Of a stretch of DNA of 64,000 bases, positions 18,228-59,653 are shown piece after piece; positions within the stretch are counted from its first letter, which is position 1, and each line of letters opens with the position of its first letter. A program made the translations under genes and the position numbers. The DNA is from Escherichia coli. Lineage in GTDB: Bacteria > Pseudomonadota > Gammaproteobacteria > Enterobacterales > Enterobacteriaceae. Below the pieces are notes generated by a model, which worked only from the letters and a program-made list of their open reading frames with translations, was not told the DNA's origin and searched no databases. The stretch lies in NCBI RefSeq assembly GCF_013122565.1, contig NZ_CP053258.1. One strand, given 5' to 3'.

Positions 18228-18411
18228 TCACAACCCGAAGATGTTTCACTTCAGAGTTGCGAAAATTTGAGAGACTCACGAACAACATTCGTTGTTCAGT
18301 GTTTCAATTTTCAGCTTGATCCAGATTTTTAAAGAGCAAATATCTCAAACATCACCCGAAGATGAGTTTTGAGATATTGAGGTCGGCGACTTTCACTCAC
18401 AAACCAGCAAG

Positions 18412-18572: not shown

Positions 18573-20114
<1,542 letters not shown>

Positions 20115-20297
20115 AAAAGTTTGATGCTCAAAGAATTAAACTTCGTAATGAATTACGTGTTCACTCTTGAGACTTGGTATTCATTTTTCGTCTTGCGACG
20201 TTAAGAATCCGTATCTTCGAGTGCCCACACAGATTGTCTGATAAATTGTTAAAGAGCAGTTGCGACGCGGCTTTAGCGCACTGTCGCGAGGTGGCGT

Positions 20298-20325
20298 ATA
20301 TTACGCTTTCCTCTTTCAGAGTCAA
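20298..20325 (-). promoter_or_regulatory. rrnE P2 promoter
   Basis: Minus strand TTGACT-16 bp-TAATAT. Confidence 0.7.
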
Positions 20326-20407
20326 CCCTGAATTTCAGGATTTTTCTCTTCAACCGAACCGGCTGTTTGTGTGAAGTGATTCACATCCGCCGTGTCGATG
20401 GAGGCGC

Positions 20408-20460
20408 ATTATAGGGAGTTCTCCGCAGGCCGCAATAGAAAAATTGCAGAAAAATGACTG
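20408..20460 (-). promoter_or_regulatory. rrnE P1 promoter with AT-rich UP element
   Basis: Minus strand TTGCGG-16 bp-TATAAT followed by a GC-rich discriminator (gcgcc); AT-rich tract upstream. Confidence 0.7.
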
Positions 20461-20606
20461 ACTGCTGCATTCCCCAGCAAAACCCCGCTTTATACCTTTT
20501 TACGCACAGAGTTATCCACAATCATCAATGTAATTTCTGTATTTTTCCCACGGTAACCACTGTCAAAATTGTGATCACCATTGAAAGAGAAAAATTCGCG
20601 AGCGTT

Positions 20607-20622
20607 GCGCAAACGTTTTCGT
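20607..20622 (+). promoter_or_regulatory. PurR operator (pur box) upstream of purHD
   Basis: gcgcaaacgttttcgt matches the remembered PurR box consensus (ACGCAAACGTTTTCNT) at about 14 of 16 positions. Confidence 0.7.
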
Positions 20623-20729
20623 TACAATGCGGGCGAAAAATAAGGATGCCCCGTTAGGGGCGTTAGCTGAGTTTTTCGCGAAAAATTCAGCTAACGCTCT
20701 CTGTAATAGTCAAATCCAGGGGATTTACC

Positions 20730-22319
20730 ATGCAACAACGTCGTCCAGTCCGCCGCGCTCTGCTCAGTGTTTCTGACAAAGCCGGTATCGTCGAATTCGC
20801 CCAGGCACTTTCCACACGCGGTGTGGAGCTGCTGTCTACAGGGGGCACTGCCCGTCTGTTAGCAGAAAAAGGTCTGCCGGTAACCGAAGTTTCCGATTAC
20901 ACCGGTTTCCCGGAGATGATGGATGGACGCGTGAAGACCCTGCATCCGAAAGTACATGGTGGCATTCTGGGCCGTCGCGGCCAGGACGATGCCATTATGG
21001 AAGAACATCAGATCCAGCCTATCGATATGGTGGTTGTTAACCTGTATCCGTTCGCCCAGACCGTTGCTCGTGAAGGCTGCTCGCTGGAAGATGCGGTTGA
21101 GAACATCGATATCGGCGGCCCGACCATGGTGCGCTCCGCCGCTAAGAACCATAAAGATGTCGCAATCGTGGTGAAGAGCAGCGACTACGACGCCATTATT
21201 AAAGAGATGGATGCCAACGAAGGATCGCTGACGCTTGCAACCCGTTTCGACCTCGCCATCAAAGCCTTCGAACACACTGCCGCCTACGACAGTATGATTG
21301 CCAACTACTTCGGCAGCATGGTTCCGGCTTACCACGGTGAAAGCAAAGAAGCCGCAGGCCGCTTCCCGCGCACGCTGAACCTGAACTTCATTAAGAAGCA
21401 GGATATGCGTTACGGCGAGAACAGCCACCAGCAGGCTGCCTTCTATATAGAAGAGAATGTGAAAGAAGCCTCCGTTGCTACCGCAACCCAGGTTCAGGGT
21501 AAAGCCCTCTCTTATAACAACATCGCCGACACCGATGCGGCGCTGGAGTGCGTGAAAGAGTTCGCCGAGCCGGCATGTGTGATTGTGAAGCACGCCAACC
21601 CTTGCGGCGTGGCTATCGGCAATTCCATTCTTGACGCTTACGATCGCGCGTACAAAACCGACCCGACCTCCGCATTCGGCGGCATCATTGCCTTTAACCG
21701 CGAGCTGGATGCGGAAACCGCGCAGGCCATCATTTCTCGTCAGTTTGTTGAAGTGATCATTGCGCCATCCGCCAGCGAAGAAGCCCTGAAAATCACCGCC
21801 GCCAAACAAAACGTTCGTGTCCTGACCTGTGGTCAGTGGGGCGAGCGTGTTCCGGGTCTTGATTTCAAACGCGTAAACGGCGGTTTGCTGGTTCAGGATC
21901 GCGATCTGGGGATGGTCGGCGCAGAAGAGCTGCGCGTCGTGACCAAACGTCAGCCGAGTGAACAGGAACTGCGTGATGCGCTGTTCTGCTGGAAAGTGGC
22001 GAAGTTCGTGAAATCCAATGCTATCGTCTATGCCAAAAACAATATGACCATCGGTATTGGCGCGGGCCAGATGAGCCGCGTGTACTCCGCGAAAATCGCC
22101 GGTATTAAAGCTGCCGATGAAGGCCTGGAAGTGAAAGGTTCCTCGATGGCTTCTGACGCGTTCTTCCCGTTCCGCGACGGTATTGATGCCGCCGCCGCTG
22201 CAGGCGTGACCTGTGTAATCCAGCCTGGCGGTTCTATCCGTGATGACGAAGTGATTGCTGCCGCCGACGAGCACGGTATTGCGATGCTCTTCACCGACAT
22301 GCGCCACTTCCGCCATTAA
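20730..22319 (+). CDS. purH: Bifunctional AICAR transformylase / IMP cyclohydrolase
   Basis: 529-aa [31 protein letters not shown]... Confidence 0.95.
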
Positions 22320-22330
22320 TGGAGCAATAG

Positions 22331-23620
22331 ATGAAAGTATTAGTGATTGGTAACGGCGGGCGCGAGCACGCGCTGGCCTGGAAAGCGGCCCAGTCGCCGC
22401 TGGTTGAGACTGTTTTTGTTGCTCCGGGTAATGCAGGCACTGCGCTGGAACCCGCGCTGCAAAACGTTGCTATCGGCGTGACCGATATCCCGGCGCTGTT
22501 GGATTTCGCACAAAACGAAAAGATTGATCTGACCATCGTCGGCCCGGAAGCGCCGCTGGTGAAAGGCGTGGTCGATACCTTCCGCGCCGCCGGGCTGAAA
22601 ATCTTCGGCCCAACCGCAGGTGCGGCCCAACTGGAAGGCTCAAAAGCGTTTACCAAAGATTTCCTGGCCCGCCATAAGATCCCTACGGCGGAATACCAGA
22701 ACTTCACCGAGGTAGAACCTGCGCTGGCGTATCTGCGTGAGAAAGGCGCGCCAATCGTCATTAAAGCTGACGGTCTGGCTGCCGGGAAAGGCGTTATCGT
22801 GGCGATGACGCTGGAAGAAGCGGAAGCGGCTGTTCACGATATGCTGGCGGGCAACGCGTTTGGAGATGCGGGTCATCGCATCGTTATCGAAGAGTTCCTC
22901 GATGGCGAAGAAGCGAGCTTTATCGTGATGGTGGACGGCGAGCATGTGCTGCCGATGGCCACCAGCCAGGATCACAAACGCGTAGGCGATAAAGATACCG
23001 GACCAAACACGGGCGGGATGGGCGCTTACTCCCCCGCGCCGGTAGTAACCGATGAAGTTCATCAGCGCACCATGGAACGTATTATCTGGCCAACAGTGAA
23101 AGGCATGGCGGCGGAAGGCAACACCTACACCGGTTTTCTCTACGCGGGCCTGATGATCGACAAACAGGGCAATCCGAAGGTTATTGAATTTAACTGCCGC
23201 TTTGGCGATCCGGAAACCCAGCCGATTATGCTGCGCATGAAGTCCGATCTTGTTGAACTCTGCCTGGCGGCCTGTGAAGGCAAGCTGGACGAGAAAACGT
23301 CAGAGTGGGATGAACGCGCTTCTCTCGGCGTGGTGATGGCAGCGGGCGGGTATCCGGGTGATTATCGCACCGGTGATGTGATCCACGGCCTGCCGCTGGA
23401 AGAAGTGGCAGGCGGCAAAGTGTTCCACGCGGGCACGAAACTGGCGGATAACGAGCAGGTAGTGACCAGCGGCGGGCGCGTACTGTGCGTCACCGCGCTG
23501 GGTCATACCGTAGCAGAAGCGCAGAAACGCGCCTATGACTTAATGACCGATATCCACTGGGACGACTGCTTCTGCCGGAAAGATATCGGCTGGCGCGCTA
23601 TCGAACGCGAGCAGAACTAA
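22331..23620 (+). CDS. purD: Phosphoribosylamine-glycine ligase
   Basis: 429-aa ORF, MKVLVIGNGGREHALAWKAAQSPLVETVFVAPGNAG... Confidence 0.95.
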   Translation: MKVLVIGNGGREHALAWKAAQSPLVETVFVAPGNAGTALEPALQNVAIGVTDIPALLDFAQNEKIDLTIVGPEAPLVKGVVDTFRAAGLKIFGPTAGAAQLEGSKAFTKDFLARHKIPTAEYQNFTEVEPALAYLREKGAPIVIKADGLAAGKGVIVAMTLEEAEAAVHDMLAGNAFGDAGHRIVIEEFLDGEEASFIVMVDGEHVLPMATSQDHKRVGDKDTGPNTGGMGAYSPAPVVTDEVHQRTMERIIWPTVKGMAAEGNTYTGFLYAGLMIDKQGNPKVIEFNCRFGDPETQPIMLRMKSDLVELCLAACEGKLDEKTSEWDERASLGVVMAAGGYPGDYRTGDVIHGLPLEEVAGGKVFHAGTKLADNEQVVTSGGRVLCVTALGHTVAEAQKRAYDLMTDIHWDDCFCRKDIGWRAIEREQN

Positions 23621-24942
23621 CGCGACAGTTTTGCCAATAGCGTTTTGCGAGTGATCCCTAACTGACGGGCGGCTTCGGTTTTGTTGCCGCCCGTTTTCTC
23701 CAGCGCCGCCAGAATCACCTCTTTTTCCACTTCCACCAACGGCTGAATATCCTGACTTTGCCCCAGCGGGATCGGCGTACTGGCAATCGCCAGCGGCAGC
23801 TCGCGTTCGGAAATATATTCCCCAGTCAGCAGCACCACCGCCCGTTCCACCGCATTTTCCAGTTCACGAATATTTCCCGGCCAGTCGTAATGAATCAACA
23901 GATCCATCGCCTGGGGCGTAAAGCCTTTTACCGCCTTGCGATTACGTTCAGCAAAGCGCTGAAGAAAATGGCCAGCCAGCAGAGGAATATCTTCCCGCCG
24001 TTGCCGCAGCGACGGTACTTCAATCGCCACCACGTTCAGGCGATAGTAGAGATCCTGGCGAAAACGCCCGGCCTTTACCTCTGCGGCAAGATCGCGATGG
24101 GTCGCCGCAATCAGCCGGACATCAACCGAAATAGTCTGGTTGCTACCGACACGCTGAACTTCGCGTTCCTGAATCGCACGTAGCAGACGCACCTGCATCA
24201 TCGGCGAGATATCGCCAATTTCATCGAGAAACAGCGTGCCGCCGTCCGCCTCAACAAAGCGCCCTTCCCGGCGTTTATCGGCTCCAGTAAACGCCCCTTT
24301 TTCGTGACCGAACAATTCAGATTCCAGCAAGGATTCGTTGAGTGCCGCACAGTTGAGCGTTACCAGCGGTTTTTCGCTACGTGCGCTACTGGCGTGAATC
24401 GCCCTGGCGACCAGCTCTTTACCGGTGCCGGAATCGCCGTGGATCAGCACCGTGGCTTCCGATGGCGCGACGAGGGCGATTTCACTGAGCAGGTGTTGCA
24501 TCGCCGGGCTTTTACCGACCATACCGAACTGGCTGGCAGTCACCGCAGGTGTTTCAGCATCAATACTGTGCGTATGCGCGAGCGCCTTTTCCAGCGTCGC
24601 CTGTAGGTTATCGAAATCCAGCGGCTTGATGAGATAATCCAGCGCCCCAGTTTTCAGTGCCTCTACCGCCGTCTCGACGCTGGAGTACGCAGTCATAATC
24701 AGCACCGGAATTGCCGGGTTTAACGCTTTGATCTCTTTCAGCGTGGCGATGCCGTCCATCTCCGCCATTCGCACATCGCAAAGCACAAGATCAAAAACCT
24801 GTTCCCGCACCTGCTCCAGCGCCTGTCGCCCGCTGTTCGCCAGCGCGACGTTATAGCCCCAGCCGCGCAGTAAAGCCTGCAAAATAGTGCAGTGGCTAAT
24901 GTCATCATCCACCACCAGAATATCGATATTATCGTGCGTCAT
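23617..24942 (-). CDS. zraR: Sigma-54-dependent response regulator ZraR (HydG)
   Basis: 441-aa ORF with receiver domain, AAA+ sigma-54 activator motifs (GESGTGKE, GAFTGA) and C-terminal HTH. Confidence 0.9.
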
Positions 24943-26315
24943 CCTTGTGGGTCCTTACGCGTAATATTGACCGGAAGCCAGAGGGTGAACGTTGCGCCTT
25001 TTCCCTCCTGGCTTGCGACCTGAATTGTACCACCGTGTTGTTCAACAATATTATGCACGACCGCCAGCCCCAATCCGGTGCCTTCGGCTTTGGTGGTGAA
25101 GTACGGAGTGAAGATGGCTTCAAGCTGATCTGCCGCAATTCCCTTACCGCTGTCGGTAACGCTGATTTTCACGCCCGCGCCGCTTTCGCTGGCCGTCACG
25201 CTAATCACGCCATGCTGACCAATCGCCTGAATAGCATTGAGATAGAGATTCAACAGGACCTGAGTCAGCCTGTCCGGATCGGCCTGAATTTCCGGTAATG
25301 TGTCGTTGTCGGTAAAGCGTAACTGGATCTCCCGGCTGTTTGCATCCTGGCTTACCAGCTGTAATGAGTGGTTAATCAGCGTGTTGAGATCCACCGCCTG
25401 CAAAGCCAGATGCGTTGGCTTAACCAGTTCCAGCAACTCGCTTACCACGCGGTTTAAACGGTCGGCCTCTTTCGCCATCACCTGCGCCAGTTGATGCGCT
25501 TCTCCCCCTGCAGGCGCGCGCTCGGCAAAGTATTTCGCCAGTCCTTTAATCGAGGAAAGTGGGTTACGGATTTCGTGGGCAACGCCTGCCGCAAGATGCC
25601 CCAGCGCCACCAGCTTCTCTTTGCGCTTCATTTCATCTTGTAGAAGCTGGCGCGAGCGCAGATAGCGGCGATACCAGAAGAATGACAATACGCTTGCCAG
25701 CAAGACCGTCGCCAGGGCGAAGAGGATAATCAGGGTGTTTCTCTGCTCACGATCTTCGGCACTCACAATATTACTGGCGTCGAAAGCGATGAAAATTGCT
25801 TGTGGTGTCGCGGCATACTGCTGCATATGGCGCATCCGGTGCATTCCAGCAGCAAACATCGGTTGAAACTGGCGATAAATTTCCAGAACAGGCTCGCCGT
25901 CTGCGCTATCGATCCGCCGCCATGCTTCTTCATCTCCCGGATGTAACTGCTGCATTTCCTGCGGGGAATAAAGCTGTTTTCCCACCATGCCGGAGTTGCT
26001 ATGCATCACGATTGTTCCTTGTTCATCCGTGACCGCAAACCAACGTACTCCAGGCTGCCCGGCCATTTCTTCCAGTAAGGCCTGCTGCTGCGCATGATGC
26101 ATGCGCATCCCCATGCCGACGCGCGAGCCGGATTCAAGAGCGCGAATAAGTACACTGCCTTTTTCCAGCAGCGTTTGTCTGGCGGCGGCAGTCTCGCGCC
26201 CATAATCGCGAATCACCGTCACCGCAAACAACCCCACCAGCCCAACAATGACCACGGGGAGGATCGCGCTTAACCATTTAGCTAAGGAGTCTTTAGAACG
26301 TTGCATAAAACGCAT
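24939..26315 (-). CDS. zraS: Sensor histidine kinase ZraS (HydH)
   Basis: 458-aa ORF with two hydrophobic segments and a histidine-kinase core (HEIRNPL H-box); overlaps zraR by 4 nt. Confidence 0.9.
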   Translation of the reverse strand: MRFMQRSKDSLAKWLSAILPVVIVGLVGLFAVTVIRDYGRETAAARQTLLEKGSVLIRALESGSRVGMGMRMHHAQQQALLEEMAGQPGVRWFAVTDEQGTIVMHSNSGMVGKQLYSPQEMQQLHPGDEEAWRRIDSADGEPVLEIYRQFQPMFAAGMHRMRHMQQYAATPQAIFIAFDASNIVSAEDREQRNTLIILFALATVLLASVLSFFWYRRYLRSRQLLQDEMKRKEKLVALGHLAAGVAHEIRNPLSSIKGLAKYFAERAPAGGEAHQLAQVMAKEADRLNRVVSELLELVKPTHLALQAVDLNTLINHSLQLVSQDANSREIQLRFTDNDTLPEIQADPDRLTQVLLNLYLNAIQAIGQHGVISVTASESGAGVKISVTDSGKGIAADQLEAIFTPYFTTKAEGTGLGLAVVHNIVEQHGGTIQVASQEGKGATFTLWLPVNITRKDPQG

Positions 26316-26362: not shown

Positions 26363-26413
26363 TCTTTTATCAGCGCTTACCCTGCGCTGTAACACAAAGG
26401 CTTAAGTTTCAAT

Positions 26414-26459
26414 GAGTAAAAATGACTCGCTACCCGCAGCAGGCGAGTCATTTTTACTC
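26414..26459. promoter_or_regulatory. ZraR enhancer-binding inverted repeat in the zraP/zraS divergent region
   Basis: gagtaaaaatgactcgc and gcgagtcatttttactc are perfect 17-bp inverted repeats separated by 12 bp. Confidence 0.7.
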
Positions 26460-26501
26460 GCCTATCACGCCAGATTGCCCGTCATATCAGCGTTTCATCG
26501 T

Positions 26502-26517
26502 TGGCACGGAAGATGCA
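26502..26517 (+). promoter_or_regulatory. Sigma-54 promoter for zraP
   Basis: tggcacggaagatgca: -24 GG and -12 GC with correct spacing. Confidence 0.7.
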
Positions 26518-26552
26518 ATACCCGAAGTAAGACAACCACTGGAGGATTAACC

Positions 26553-26978
26553 ATGAAACGGAACACGAAAATTGCCCTGGTAATGATGGCGCTTTCAGCA
26601 ATGGCGATGGGATCGACATCTGCATTTGCTCACGGCGGACACGGTATGTGGCAGCAAAATGCCGCGCCTTTGACCAGCGAACAACAGACAGCGTGGCAGA
26701 AAATCCATAATGACTTTTACGCTCAAAGCAGCGCACTGCAACAGCAACTGGTGACGAAGCGTTATGAATACAATGCCCTGTTAGCCGCGAACCCACCGGA
26801 TAGCAGCAAAATTAACGCGGTCGCCAAAGAGATGGAGAATTTGCGTCAGTCGTTAGATGAGTTACGGGTGAAACGGGATATTGCGATGGCTGAAGCGGGT
26901 ATTCCGCGCGGAGCCGGAATGGGCATGGGCTACGGCGGCTGCGGTGGTGGCGGTCATATGGGTATGGGCCACTGGTAA
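26553..26978 (+). CDS. zraP: Zinc-resistance-associated periplasmic protein ZraP
   Basis: ORF 26412-26978; internal start MKRNTKIALVMMALSAMAMGSTSAFAHGGHG (signal peptide) gives 141 aa; Gly/His/Met-rich C-terminus. Confidence 0.9.
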   Translation: MKRNTKIALVMMALSAMAMGSTSAFAHGGHGMWQQNAAPLTSEQQTAWQKIHNDFYAQSSALQQQLVTKRYEYNALLAANPPDSSKINAVAKEMENLRQSLDELRVKRDIAMAEAGIPRGAGMGMGYGGCGGGGHMGMGHW

Positions 26979-59460: not shown

Positions 59461-59653
59461 TCACAACCCGAAGATGTTTCTTACGATTCATCATCGTGTC
59501 GCGAAAATTTGAGAGACTCACGAACAACTTTCGTTGTTCAGTGTTTCAATTTTCAGCTTGATCCAGATTTTTAAAGAGCAAATATCTCAAACATCACCCG
59601 AAGATGAGTTTTGAGATATTAAGGCAGGTGACTTTCACTCACAAACCAGCAAG

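Follow-up and report, generated by a model that had tools for sequence, protein, structure and literature searches.

In a 64,000-nucleotide stretch of Escherichia coli DNA (hereafter the window), the sequence between the promoter and the start codon of purH encodes a conserved, structured messenger RNA leader that is absent from Rfam 15 and from the searched literature. This purHD leader is a sense-strand RNA element, present in a single copy and kept by purifying selection across the Enterobacterales. The transcript would begin with about 12 unpaired, A-rich nucleotides, continue with a GC-rich hairpin (P1) that abuts a long hairpin (P2), and end with a pyrimidine-rich linker and the ribosome-binding site, over which a third, small hairpin (P3) is predicted. 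Our best explanation combines this conserved RNA leader with a post-transcriptional module for message stability and insulation; taken whole, it has in our judgment roughly even chances of being right, while the stability and insulation mechanism by itself is put forward tentatively.

Structure of the leader

Three inverted repeats make up the leader. The GC hairpin, GCCCC-GTTA-GGGGC at 20648–20661, is exactly as an earlier note on this DNA had described it, and is found both by direct reading and by a repeat search. Adjoining it is a long palindrome with two 19-nt arms (20660–20678 and 20679–20697) that are 95% complementary and separated by zero spacer. It contains the 36-bp near-perfect palindrome with one mismatch that had been reported at 20661–20696, and the sole mismatch is G20671:T20686. 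This palindrome is among the two longest local inverted repeats of the window, and arms that match at 18 or more of their 19 positions would arise by chance at about 2e-10 per position, i.e. about 1.5e-4 expected in 64 kb with spacers of 0–10 nt. The third inverted repeat had been placed at 20711–20725; it is present and covers the ribosome-binding site as stated, with coordinates that are shifted to 20712–20726.

Folding of the purH 5' untranslated region, which had been proposed as a check, reveals a structured RNA (z = −3.5 relative to shuffled sequences, with 1 of 200 shuffles as good). The predicted P2 stem has 16 bp, from C20661:G20696 to U20676:A20681 with G20671·U20686 included, and is closed by the loop CGCG (20677–20680); its predicted pair probabilities are 0.94–1.0, two apical stem pairs excepted. 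The palindromes had been called stacked, and the last pair of P1 and the first pair of P2 are indeed contiguous, but the two hairpins also share bases and compete. All these repeats lie downstream of the PurR box and of a conserved −10 hexamer (TACAAT, 20623–20628), i.e. in the purH 5' leader, where the earlier note had located them.

That note knew of no described leader element at this place, and none is present in Rfam 15 (E ≤ 1) or in the searched literature, from which the 1989–90 purHD sequence papers are excluded. Specifically, no Rfam covariance model, ZTP and purine riboswitches included, has a match at E ≤ 1 in 20470–20730 of the window, and the purH leaders of nine other loci have no curated Rfam match. 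The only leader match is to mir-4716 in locus L038 (560–619; 35.4 bits compared with a gathering threshold of 76), which is a chance match to the hairpin.

Conservation and covariation across the Enterobacterales

Within E. coli, a 401-nt region around the leader is single-copy in 5,419 of 5,426 complete genomes, and in 5,330 genomes the 94-nt leader keeps an identity of at least 99%. A short query finds a second "place" per genome, which is the palindrome matching itself on the other strand, as seen in the window. A dispersed repeat (REP/BIME, ERIC, boxC and similar) is excluded, with one locus per genome. In a divergent Escherichia the leader carries three variants, all structurally tolerable: C>T at 20661 keeps a G·U pair in both hairpins, C>T at 20677 falls in the apical loop, and G>A at 20644 is in the single-stranded 5' end. 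As a separate observation, differences among E. coli strains cluster just upstream, at 20528–20589 (17 in strain 110, compared with 0 at 20590–20800 in the most divergent strain); this 60-bp stretch, which separates the rrnE upstream region from the purH promoter, may stem from recombination or may be a spacer under relaxed constraint.

Leader identity to E. coli is 0.92–0.97 in Citrobacter, Phytobacter, and Pseudocitrobacter, compared with 0.68–0.74 at the 4-fold degenerate sites of purH (first 600 nt of the gene). In more distant genera it is 0.76–0.88 where these sites show 0.50–0.69. An alignment of the short-leader group (15 sequences) confines the variable columns to the loops of P1 and P3, the apical loop of P2, and part of the linker.

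Conservation and covariation across enterobacteria had been set beforehand as the test of these palindromes, and we find that they are kept in relatives and that their pairs covary. A total of 80 purH loci were collected, and pair counts for P2 and P3 come from an alignment of 32 Enterobacterales sequences. The shared motif is the GC hairpin followed by CGUUAnCUGA ... UCAnnUAACGCUCU. It is present in Enterobacteriaceae and close relatives (Escherichia, Citrobacter, Pseudocitrobacter, Phytobacter, Kluyvera, Enterobacter, Cedecea, Pluralibacter, Superficieibacter, and a Klebsiella sp.), Erwiniaceae (Pantoea and Erwinia), Pectobacteriaceae (Brenneria), and Yersiniaceae (Yersinia, Serratia, and Rahnella).

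In the P2 helix, 91% of cells are paired and seven pairs have both sides changed. For example, 20666:20691 is G:C (18 sequences), C:G (7), U:A (3), or U·G (3), and 20671:20686 is G·U (15), A:U (15), or G:C (2). Other pairs (20663:20694, 20664:20693, 20665:20692, 20668:20689, and 20670:20687) are almost never altered, and at 20667:20690 a mismatch, either C·C or C·U, occurs in 16 of 32 sequences. Over 22 pairs, i.e. 16 basal P2 pairs including an extension between a G-run and CUCU (see below) plus six P3 pairs, pairing in register reaches 86%, compared with 30–50% when partners are slid by one to three columns. Column shuffles never reach the observed value for four of five measures (0 of 500), and 1 of 500 reaches the fifth.

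The P2 base is thus kept and covaries while the tip varies freely: the tip between the arms spans 18 to more than 70 nt, its sequence is unrelated between genera, and it is self-complementary in each. The linker bases GCUCU are invariant or nearly so. P1 is complete, with its five pairs, in 18 of 31 species; its loop, of 4–6 nt, takes 13 different sequences, and one compensatory change is clear (GCCUC/GAGGU in locus L012). P3 has its full 6 bp only in the Escherichia/Citrobacter/Enterobacter group (14–15 of 32), with A, U, or C as the variable loop base.

A covariance model built from the 32 sequences and searched against all loci gives a single 97-bit hit in the window, together with an echo of the palindrome at 27 bits on the opposite strand, and hits upstream of purH in all motif-bearing Enterobacterales genera. 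Outside the training set, it also recovers Mangrovibacter (35.9 bits) and Photorhabdus (26.8 bits).

An analogous leader in Vibrionaceae

The same model has no match in the Vibrionaceae, Aeromonas, or Pasteurellaceae loci. The Vibrionaceae loci (L041–L071) do carry, about 40–130 nt upstream of purH, an analogous long hairpin of different sequence, with a conserved base (GGUMUUUNCCAAAA ... UUUUGGNAAAUAUC), a variable tip, and eight compensatory pairs. A small hairpin there shows the Shine-Dalgarno sequence GAGGAA in its loop, and the Vibrionaceae leader has no Rfam match either. In Pasteurellaceae, the PurR box lies 53–62 nt before the ATG and there is no hairpin. The leader architecture recurs independently in Vibrionaceae. 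A scan of five loci (four Vibrionaceae and one Aeromonas), including 1.5 kb upstream of purH, detected no ribosomal RNA (rRNA).

The selected structure is a sense-strand RNA

The palindromes are very probably a selected RNA structure of the sense strand, because their G:T pairs can form only in the sense RNA and because the sense strand folds better. The single mismatch of the DNA palindrome, G20671:T20686, becomes a G·U pair in the sense transcript, and in about 30 of 32 sequences the G-run/CUCU flanking pairs are of the G·U type. When the same segment is folded as either strand, the sense RNA has the more stable fold in 29 of 33 species, with a mean margin of 5.9 kcal/mol (P = 2e-4, which is indicative only, the species being related).

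We considered whether the structure serves the other strand instead. On this account, the GC hairpin and a T-run, backed by the long hairpin, form a minus-strand intrinsic terminator or insulator that halts antisense transcription before the rrnE promoters, as the earlier note had suggested. The T-run is real: ATCCTTATTTTT follows the GC hairpin on the minus strand, a consensus scan calls minus-strand 20661–20648 with its tail ATCCTTATTT terminator-like, and a moderately U-rich tail is kept in the Escherichia/Citrobacter group. However, the first five bases of the tail include only 0–3 U, so that even a lenient rule is passed by 9 of 17 species, and the U-run begins 4–5 nt past the stem. On the minus strand, G:T positions turn into C·A mismatches, and this strand has the poorer fold by the mean margin given above. 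In addition, Vibrionaceae keep the architecture with no adjacent rRNA operon detected in the loci scanned, and no antisense promoter was found here, nor is one known to us at the purH leader. With the sense-only G:T pairs, the better sense fold, and the poor retention of the minus-strand U-run, the proposed insulation of rrnE finds no support, and we regard this account as very unlikely.

Slightly less likely still is an element that acts as DNA, either an operator for a dimeric repressor such as RbsR or a cruciform driven by supercoiling from the rrnE promoters. The near-perfect 38-bp palindrome with its AT-rich center, about 260 bp upstream of the rrnE P1 promoter region, invites such a reading, and RbsR has been reported as a purHD repressor (Shimada 2013, as cited in PMC10912719), which also counts for an operator. 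A dimeric DNA operator is nonetheless ruled out because the spacing of the arms is variable, ranging from 0 to more than 60 bp, and the center is hypervariable. Conservation is lowest at this center, the would-be core of a dimeric site, even among the Enterobacteriaceae (TTTTTCGCGAAAAA, TTTTTAGCCAAGAA, and TTTTTAGAGAAAAA), and in half of the sequences G:T stands in place of the G:C or A:T that a palindrome in DNA needs. Operators of the LacI family also have a polarity opposite to the order of T-run, CG, and A-run in the long palindrome. A LacI/GalR-type operator (PurR or RbsR) was therefore rejected for the long palindrome, which has neither the fixed length nor the conserved center of such sites.

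Alternative pairing and access to the ribosome-binding site

Beyond covariation within each helix, the sense RNA has a choice of partners. The G-run 20657–20660 forms the 3' arm of P1, and can also pair with CUCU (20697–20700), which lengthens P2 to 20 bp. The four extension pairs (G:C, G·U, G:C, and G·U) are present in 24–31 of 32 sequences. In Brenneria, which is without P1, the G·U pairs of the extension become A:U and A:U, and in Mangrovibacter a long helix with a different interior is closed by GGG:CUCU. For E. coli, the predicted energies are −33.2 kcal/mol for P1 + P2 + P3, −31.9 kcal/mol for extended P2 + P3, and −33.3 kcal/mol for extended P2 with the freed CCCC on the Shine-Dalgarno GGGG. 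The P1 state and the extended P2 state are predicted to differ by no more than 2 kcal/mol in 23 of 31 species.

The Shine-Dalgarno sequence is predicted to be unpaired with a probability of 0.35 in native leaders, compared with 0.29 when the upstream leader is shuffled, and the native value is higher in 22 of 28 species. These models suggest that the structure tends to keep the leader off the ribosome-binding site instead of hiding it. An anti-Shine-Dalgarno switch, with the C-run or CUCU on GGGG, is energetically possible, but native leaders mask the site no more than shuffled ones and this candidate was rejected. Similarly, across nine species, neither the start region nor the early coding sequence offers the conserved arms a consistent long-range partner.

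Several other mechanisms were examined and set aside. No sense-strand intrinsic terminator or attenuator is apparent: there is no plus-strand site, and GUUAGCUGAG after P1 and CUCUCUGUAAUAG after P2 contain no U-tract. The supplementary text of an E. coli Term-seq study (PMC7815308), which possibly does not hold the complete tables, does not list purH. A leader peptide (AUG CCC CGU UAG at 20645) was rejected since it has no spacing from the Shine-Dalgarno-like AAGGA; its AUG is also missing in Cedecea, Enterobacter sp., ESNIH1, and others. Mimicry of the 5' end was rejected as well: GCGAAAAA (20633–20640) is complementary to UUUUUCGC in P2, and the match is lost where the tip differs.

GGA motifs of the CsrA type are present in the leader (AAGGAUG at 20642–20648, and GGA at 20721–20723 within the Shine-Dalgarno sequence), and the upstream one is lost in several genera. 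A CsrA-repressed leader was rejected: purH is scored "No" for a CLIP-seq peak, for co-purification (Edwards), for prediction (Kulkarni), and for cross-linking (Sowa). In one part of a published data set, the half-life of purH mRNA is 9.97 min in the wild type and 4.91 min in a csrA mutant.

What the leader may do

Selection is strong on the basal 12–16 bp of P2 and its flanks (the G-run and GCUCU), with the tip left free. We propose that the leader acts in cis after transcription as a self-contained module, with stable local helices that would keep a long leader from pairing with the ribosome-binding site. The helix of about 20 bp may obstruct 5'-end-dependent attack by RNase E, or may itself be processed, and could thereby set the lifetime and translatability of purHD mRNA independently of PurR. 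The strictly kept helix base suggests, in addition, a partner that recognizes its sequence. The comparatively long half-life of purH fits the stability mechanism without proving it: the same part of that data set gives 5.55 min for purK, 5.61 min for purN, and 6.55 min for purM.

A number of points weigh against this explanation. It is computational, and the transcription start is deduced from the −10 hexamer. With that inferred start, about 12 nt are unpaired at the 5' end, and the leader is not a 5'-terminal protective hairpin of the ompA type. The half-life contrast rests on three pur genes from one part of a 22-part supplement. The accessibility effect is small, is not significant in any single species, and comes from related species. 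Finally, U20663, U20664, A20665, U20668, and A20670, together with their partners, are near-invariant from Escherichia to Yersinia while the tip turns over. Such invariant pairs are left unexplained by a pure barrier or insulator, which needs only a stable helix, and for that reason a specific partner stays a serious rival.

On this rival reading, the leader would be regulatory, with a trans-acting protein, small RNA, or metabolite such as ZMP/ZTP or a purine nucleotide at the P2 base and its flanks whose binding shifts the near-isoenergetic choice between P1 and the P2 extension and so alters translation initiation. What speaks for it is that sequence, and not pairing alone, is strongly kept at the helix base and in GCUCU. 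The G-run can indeed partner either the C-run (in P1) or CUCU, at similar energies in most species, and the extended state with CCCC on the Shine-Dalgarno GGGG has almost exactly the energy of the P1 state in E. coli. In other phyla, purH is a classic ZTP-riboswitch gene, and to our knowledge enterics have no ZTP riboswitch. On the other side, the Shine-Dalgarno sequence is masked no more than in shuffled leaders, P2 in E. coli is an uninterrupted helix, without the internal loop or junction that a ligand pocket would need, and no conserved long-range partner is seen in the translation start region or early coding sequence. Neither a CsrA CLIP peak on purH nor an Rfam riboswitch match was found, and the near-equal energies may merely reflect shared sequence. 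On balance, we consider a trans-acting partner unlikely, if clearly less so than the DNA-level and antisense readings above. A fuller version, in which the two-hairpin leader is a hitherto unrecognized cis-regulatory RNA of Enterobacterales, with a Vibrionaceae analogue, whose helix base docks a specific protein, small RNA, or small molecule, and gives purHD a PurR-independent, post-transcriptional response, for example to ZMP/ZTP or one-carbon stress, that fills the role of the ZTP riboswitch of other phyla, is more doubtful again.

Equally doubtful, in our view, is an RNase III processing site, at which a cut in the roughly 20-bp P2 would remove the 5' leader and change the stability or translation of purHD, as in pnp, rnc, and adhE. 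P2 plus its extension measures 20 bp in E. coli and more in most other genera, and so reaches the approximately 20 bp of double-stranded RNA, or about two helical turns, that RNase III requires. The conserved C·C or C·U mismatch at 20667:20690 is of a kind typical of single-strand nicking sites. RNase III, however, needs little sequence, which leaves the invariant base pairs unexplained. Among the entries listed in one RNase III data set, the purH-rrsE region appears only for the rRNA leader site (K-12 4207874).

The linker raises the last of these alternatives, a Nus-factor site resembling boxB-boxA, as in the rrn and suhB leaders, where a hairpin is followed by a boxA that recruits NusB/NusE. 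CGCUCU does directly follow the hairpin, 25–35 nt before the start codon, and the tracts after the hairpin in Erwinia (CGCUCUUA) and Serratia (GCUCUUUA) resemble the boxA of lambda and rrn. Relative to the consensus GYTCTTTAANA, however, the E. coli tract GCTCTCTGTAA has mismatches at positions 6, 8, and 9, the change T6C is half of the published C4T/T6C double mutation that inactivates the suhB boxA, and the full consensus is matched by no species in the set. Only in its GCUCU does the E. coli linker look like boxA. GCUCU is explained at least equally well by pairing with the G-run, and we find this reading scarcely credible.

Promoter, neighboring genes, and other features of the window

Features of the locus are collected in Table 1. 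The PurR operator at 20607–20622 was correctly recognized by the earlier note: the published purHD motif is ACGAAAACGTTTGCGC (PMC3159470), and GCGCAAACGTTTTCGT is its reverse complement. A PurR box is kept at −53 to −300 nt from the purH ATG in Enterobacterales, some Vibrionaceae, and Pasteurellaceae. In every locus with a PurR box, the −10 hexamer is TACAAT, TAAAAT, TAGAAT, or TATAAT. A consensus promoter scan made no call for the purH promoter, whose −35 element is weak. Because of the position of the −10 hexamer, we infer a transcription start at about 20635–20636, which would give a leader of about 95 nt.

Table 1. Positions of the purHD leader, its parts, and adjoining features in the window
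Feature	Position	Strand	Remarks
rrnE 16S rRNA gene	18573–20114	−	Rfam scan of the window
PurR operator GCGCAAACGTTTTCGT	20607–20622	unassigned	Reverse complement of the published purH-purD motif
purH promoter −10 hexamer TACAAT	20623–20628	+	Directly adjoins the PurR box
GC-rich discriminator GCGGGCG	20629–20635	+	Between −10 hexamer and inferred start
5' end of leader, A-rich, AAAAAUAAGGAU	20636–20647	+	Unpaired in all predicted folds
P1, GC hairpin GCCCC-GUUA-GGGGC	20648–20661	+	Predicted −11.5 kcal/mol
G-run (3' arm of P1)	20657–20660	+	Alternative partner CUCU, 20697–20700
P2, long hairpin	20661–20696	+	DNA palindrome 20660–20697; predicted fold
Pyrimidine-rich linker CUCUCUGUAAUAGUC	20697–20711	+	First four bases are the G-run partner
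P3, small hairpin AAAUCC-AGG-GGAUUU	20712–20726	+	Over Shine-Dalgarno AGGGGA, 20718–20723; predicted −3.5 kcal/mol
purH coding sequence	20730–22319	+	Open reading frame list; matching E. coli gene is purH in RefSeq
purD	22331–23620	+	3' of purH; open reading frame list

The discriminator stays GC-rich in relatives; GC-rich discriminators are typical of promoters inhibited by ppGpp/DksA. Farther upstream, about 87 nt before the PurR box, a perfect consensus DnaA box (TTATCCACA) lies at 20512–20520 on the plus strand. Of 45 Enterobacterales loci, 43 carry the exact 9-mer ahead of purH in the same orientation, compared with 1 of 37 other loci, which suggests a conserved DnaA site between rrnE and purH. 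A 9-nt direct repeat, GAAAAATTC, has one copy at 20589–20597, just upstream of the purH −35, and another at 20680–20688, within the 3' arm of P2; Enterobacteriaceae keep both.

On the rrnE side, the Rfam family Ysr197 has a sub-threshold match at 20236–20468 (minus strand; 116 bits compared with a gathering threshold of 167), in the rrnE leader upstream of 16S. A similar match adjoins purH in Yersinia (L038 56–301, minus strand), and this "sRNA" family appears to be rRNA leader sequence. Identical 16-nt inverted repeats at 59581–59620 and 18339–18378 mark a second rRNA operon about 41 kb from rrnE. Elsewhere, a perfect 17-nt inverted repeat (GAGTAAAAATGACTCGC ... GCGAGTCATTTTTACTC, 12-nt spacer, 26414–26459) stands at the upstream ends of two divergent open reading frames (24939–26315, minus strand, and 26412–26978, plus strand), and looks like the binding site of a regulator.

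Significance and comparison with known systems

In E. coli, the best-studied bacterium, purHD serves as a textbook case of PurR regulation, and accounts of its control usually stop at operator and repressor. The conservation of the leader beyond synonymous sites, its covariation, and the independent Vibrionaceae analogue argue that the AICAR/ZMP step of purine synthesis has a second layer of control, at the RNA level. The purHD leader is a candidate new family for Rfam. Should its helix base prove to bind a specific factor, it would show how enterics that are without the ZTP riboswitch tune this step.

Several known leaders offer points of comparison. The ZTP (pfl) riboswitch occupies the same place, the purH leader, and would likewise give PurR-independent control of the same step; the leader described here, however, consists of two plain hairpins, with no pseudoknotted two-domain fold and no family match. 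The put RNAs of HK022, which modify RNA polymerase from within the nascent transcript, also form two adjacent stem-loops right after a promoter and may serve as a lead, but purHD is without a known internal terminator that needs antitermination. With the rrn and suhB boxA sites, purH shares a hairpin followed by a GCUCU-containing tract near the start codon, though this tract fails the consensus at critical positions.

In its helix of at least about 20 bp, 30–45 nt before the start codon, and in the single internal mismatch seen in many genera, the purH leader is similar to those of pnp, rnc, and adhE. These leaders are not homologous in sequence, and no purH-leader cleavage is among the listed sites of the data set cited above. 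Relative to ompA, the inferred 5' end of purH has about 12 unpaired nt and its hairpin is not 5'-terminal; relative to an RNase E obstacle, its helix base is kept in sequence, a constraint beyond what an obstacle as such needs. What purH shares with the ompA 5' untranslated region and with such obstacles is a set of stable hairpins in a long leader ahead of a single-stranded ribosome-binding region, a structure that is kept among enterics, and a message that is comparatively long-lived (9.97 min).

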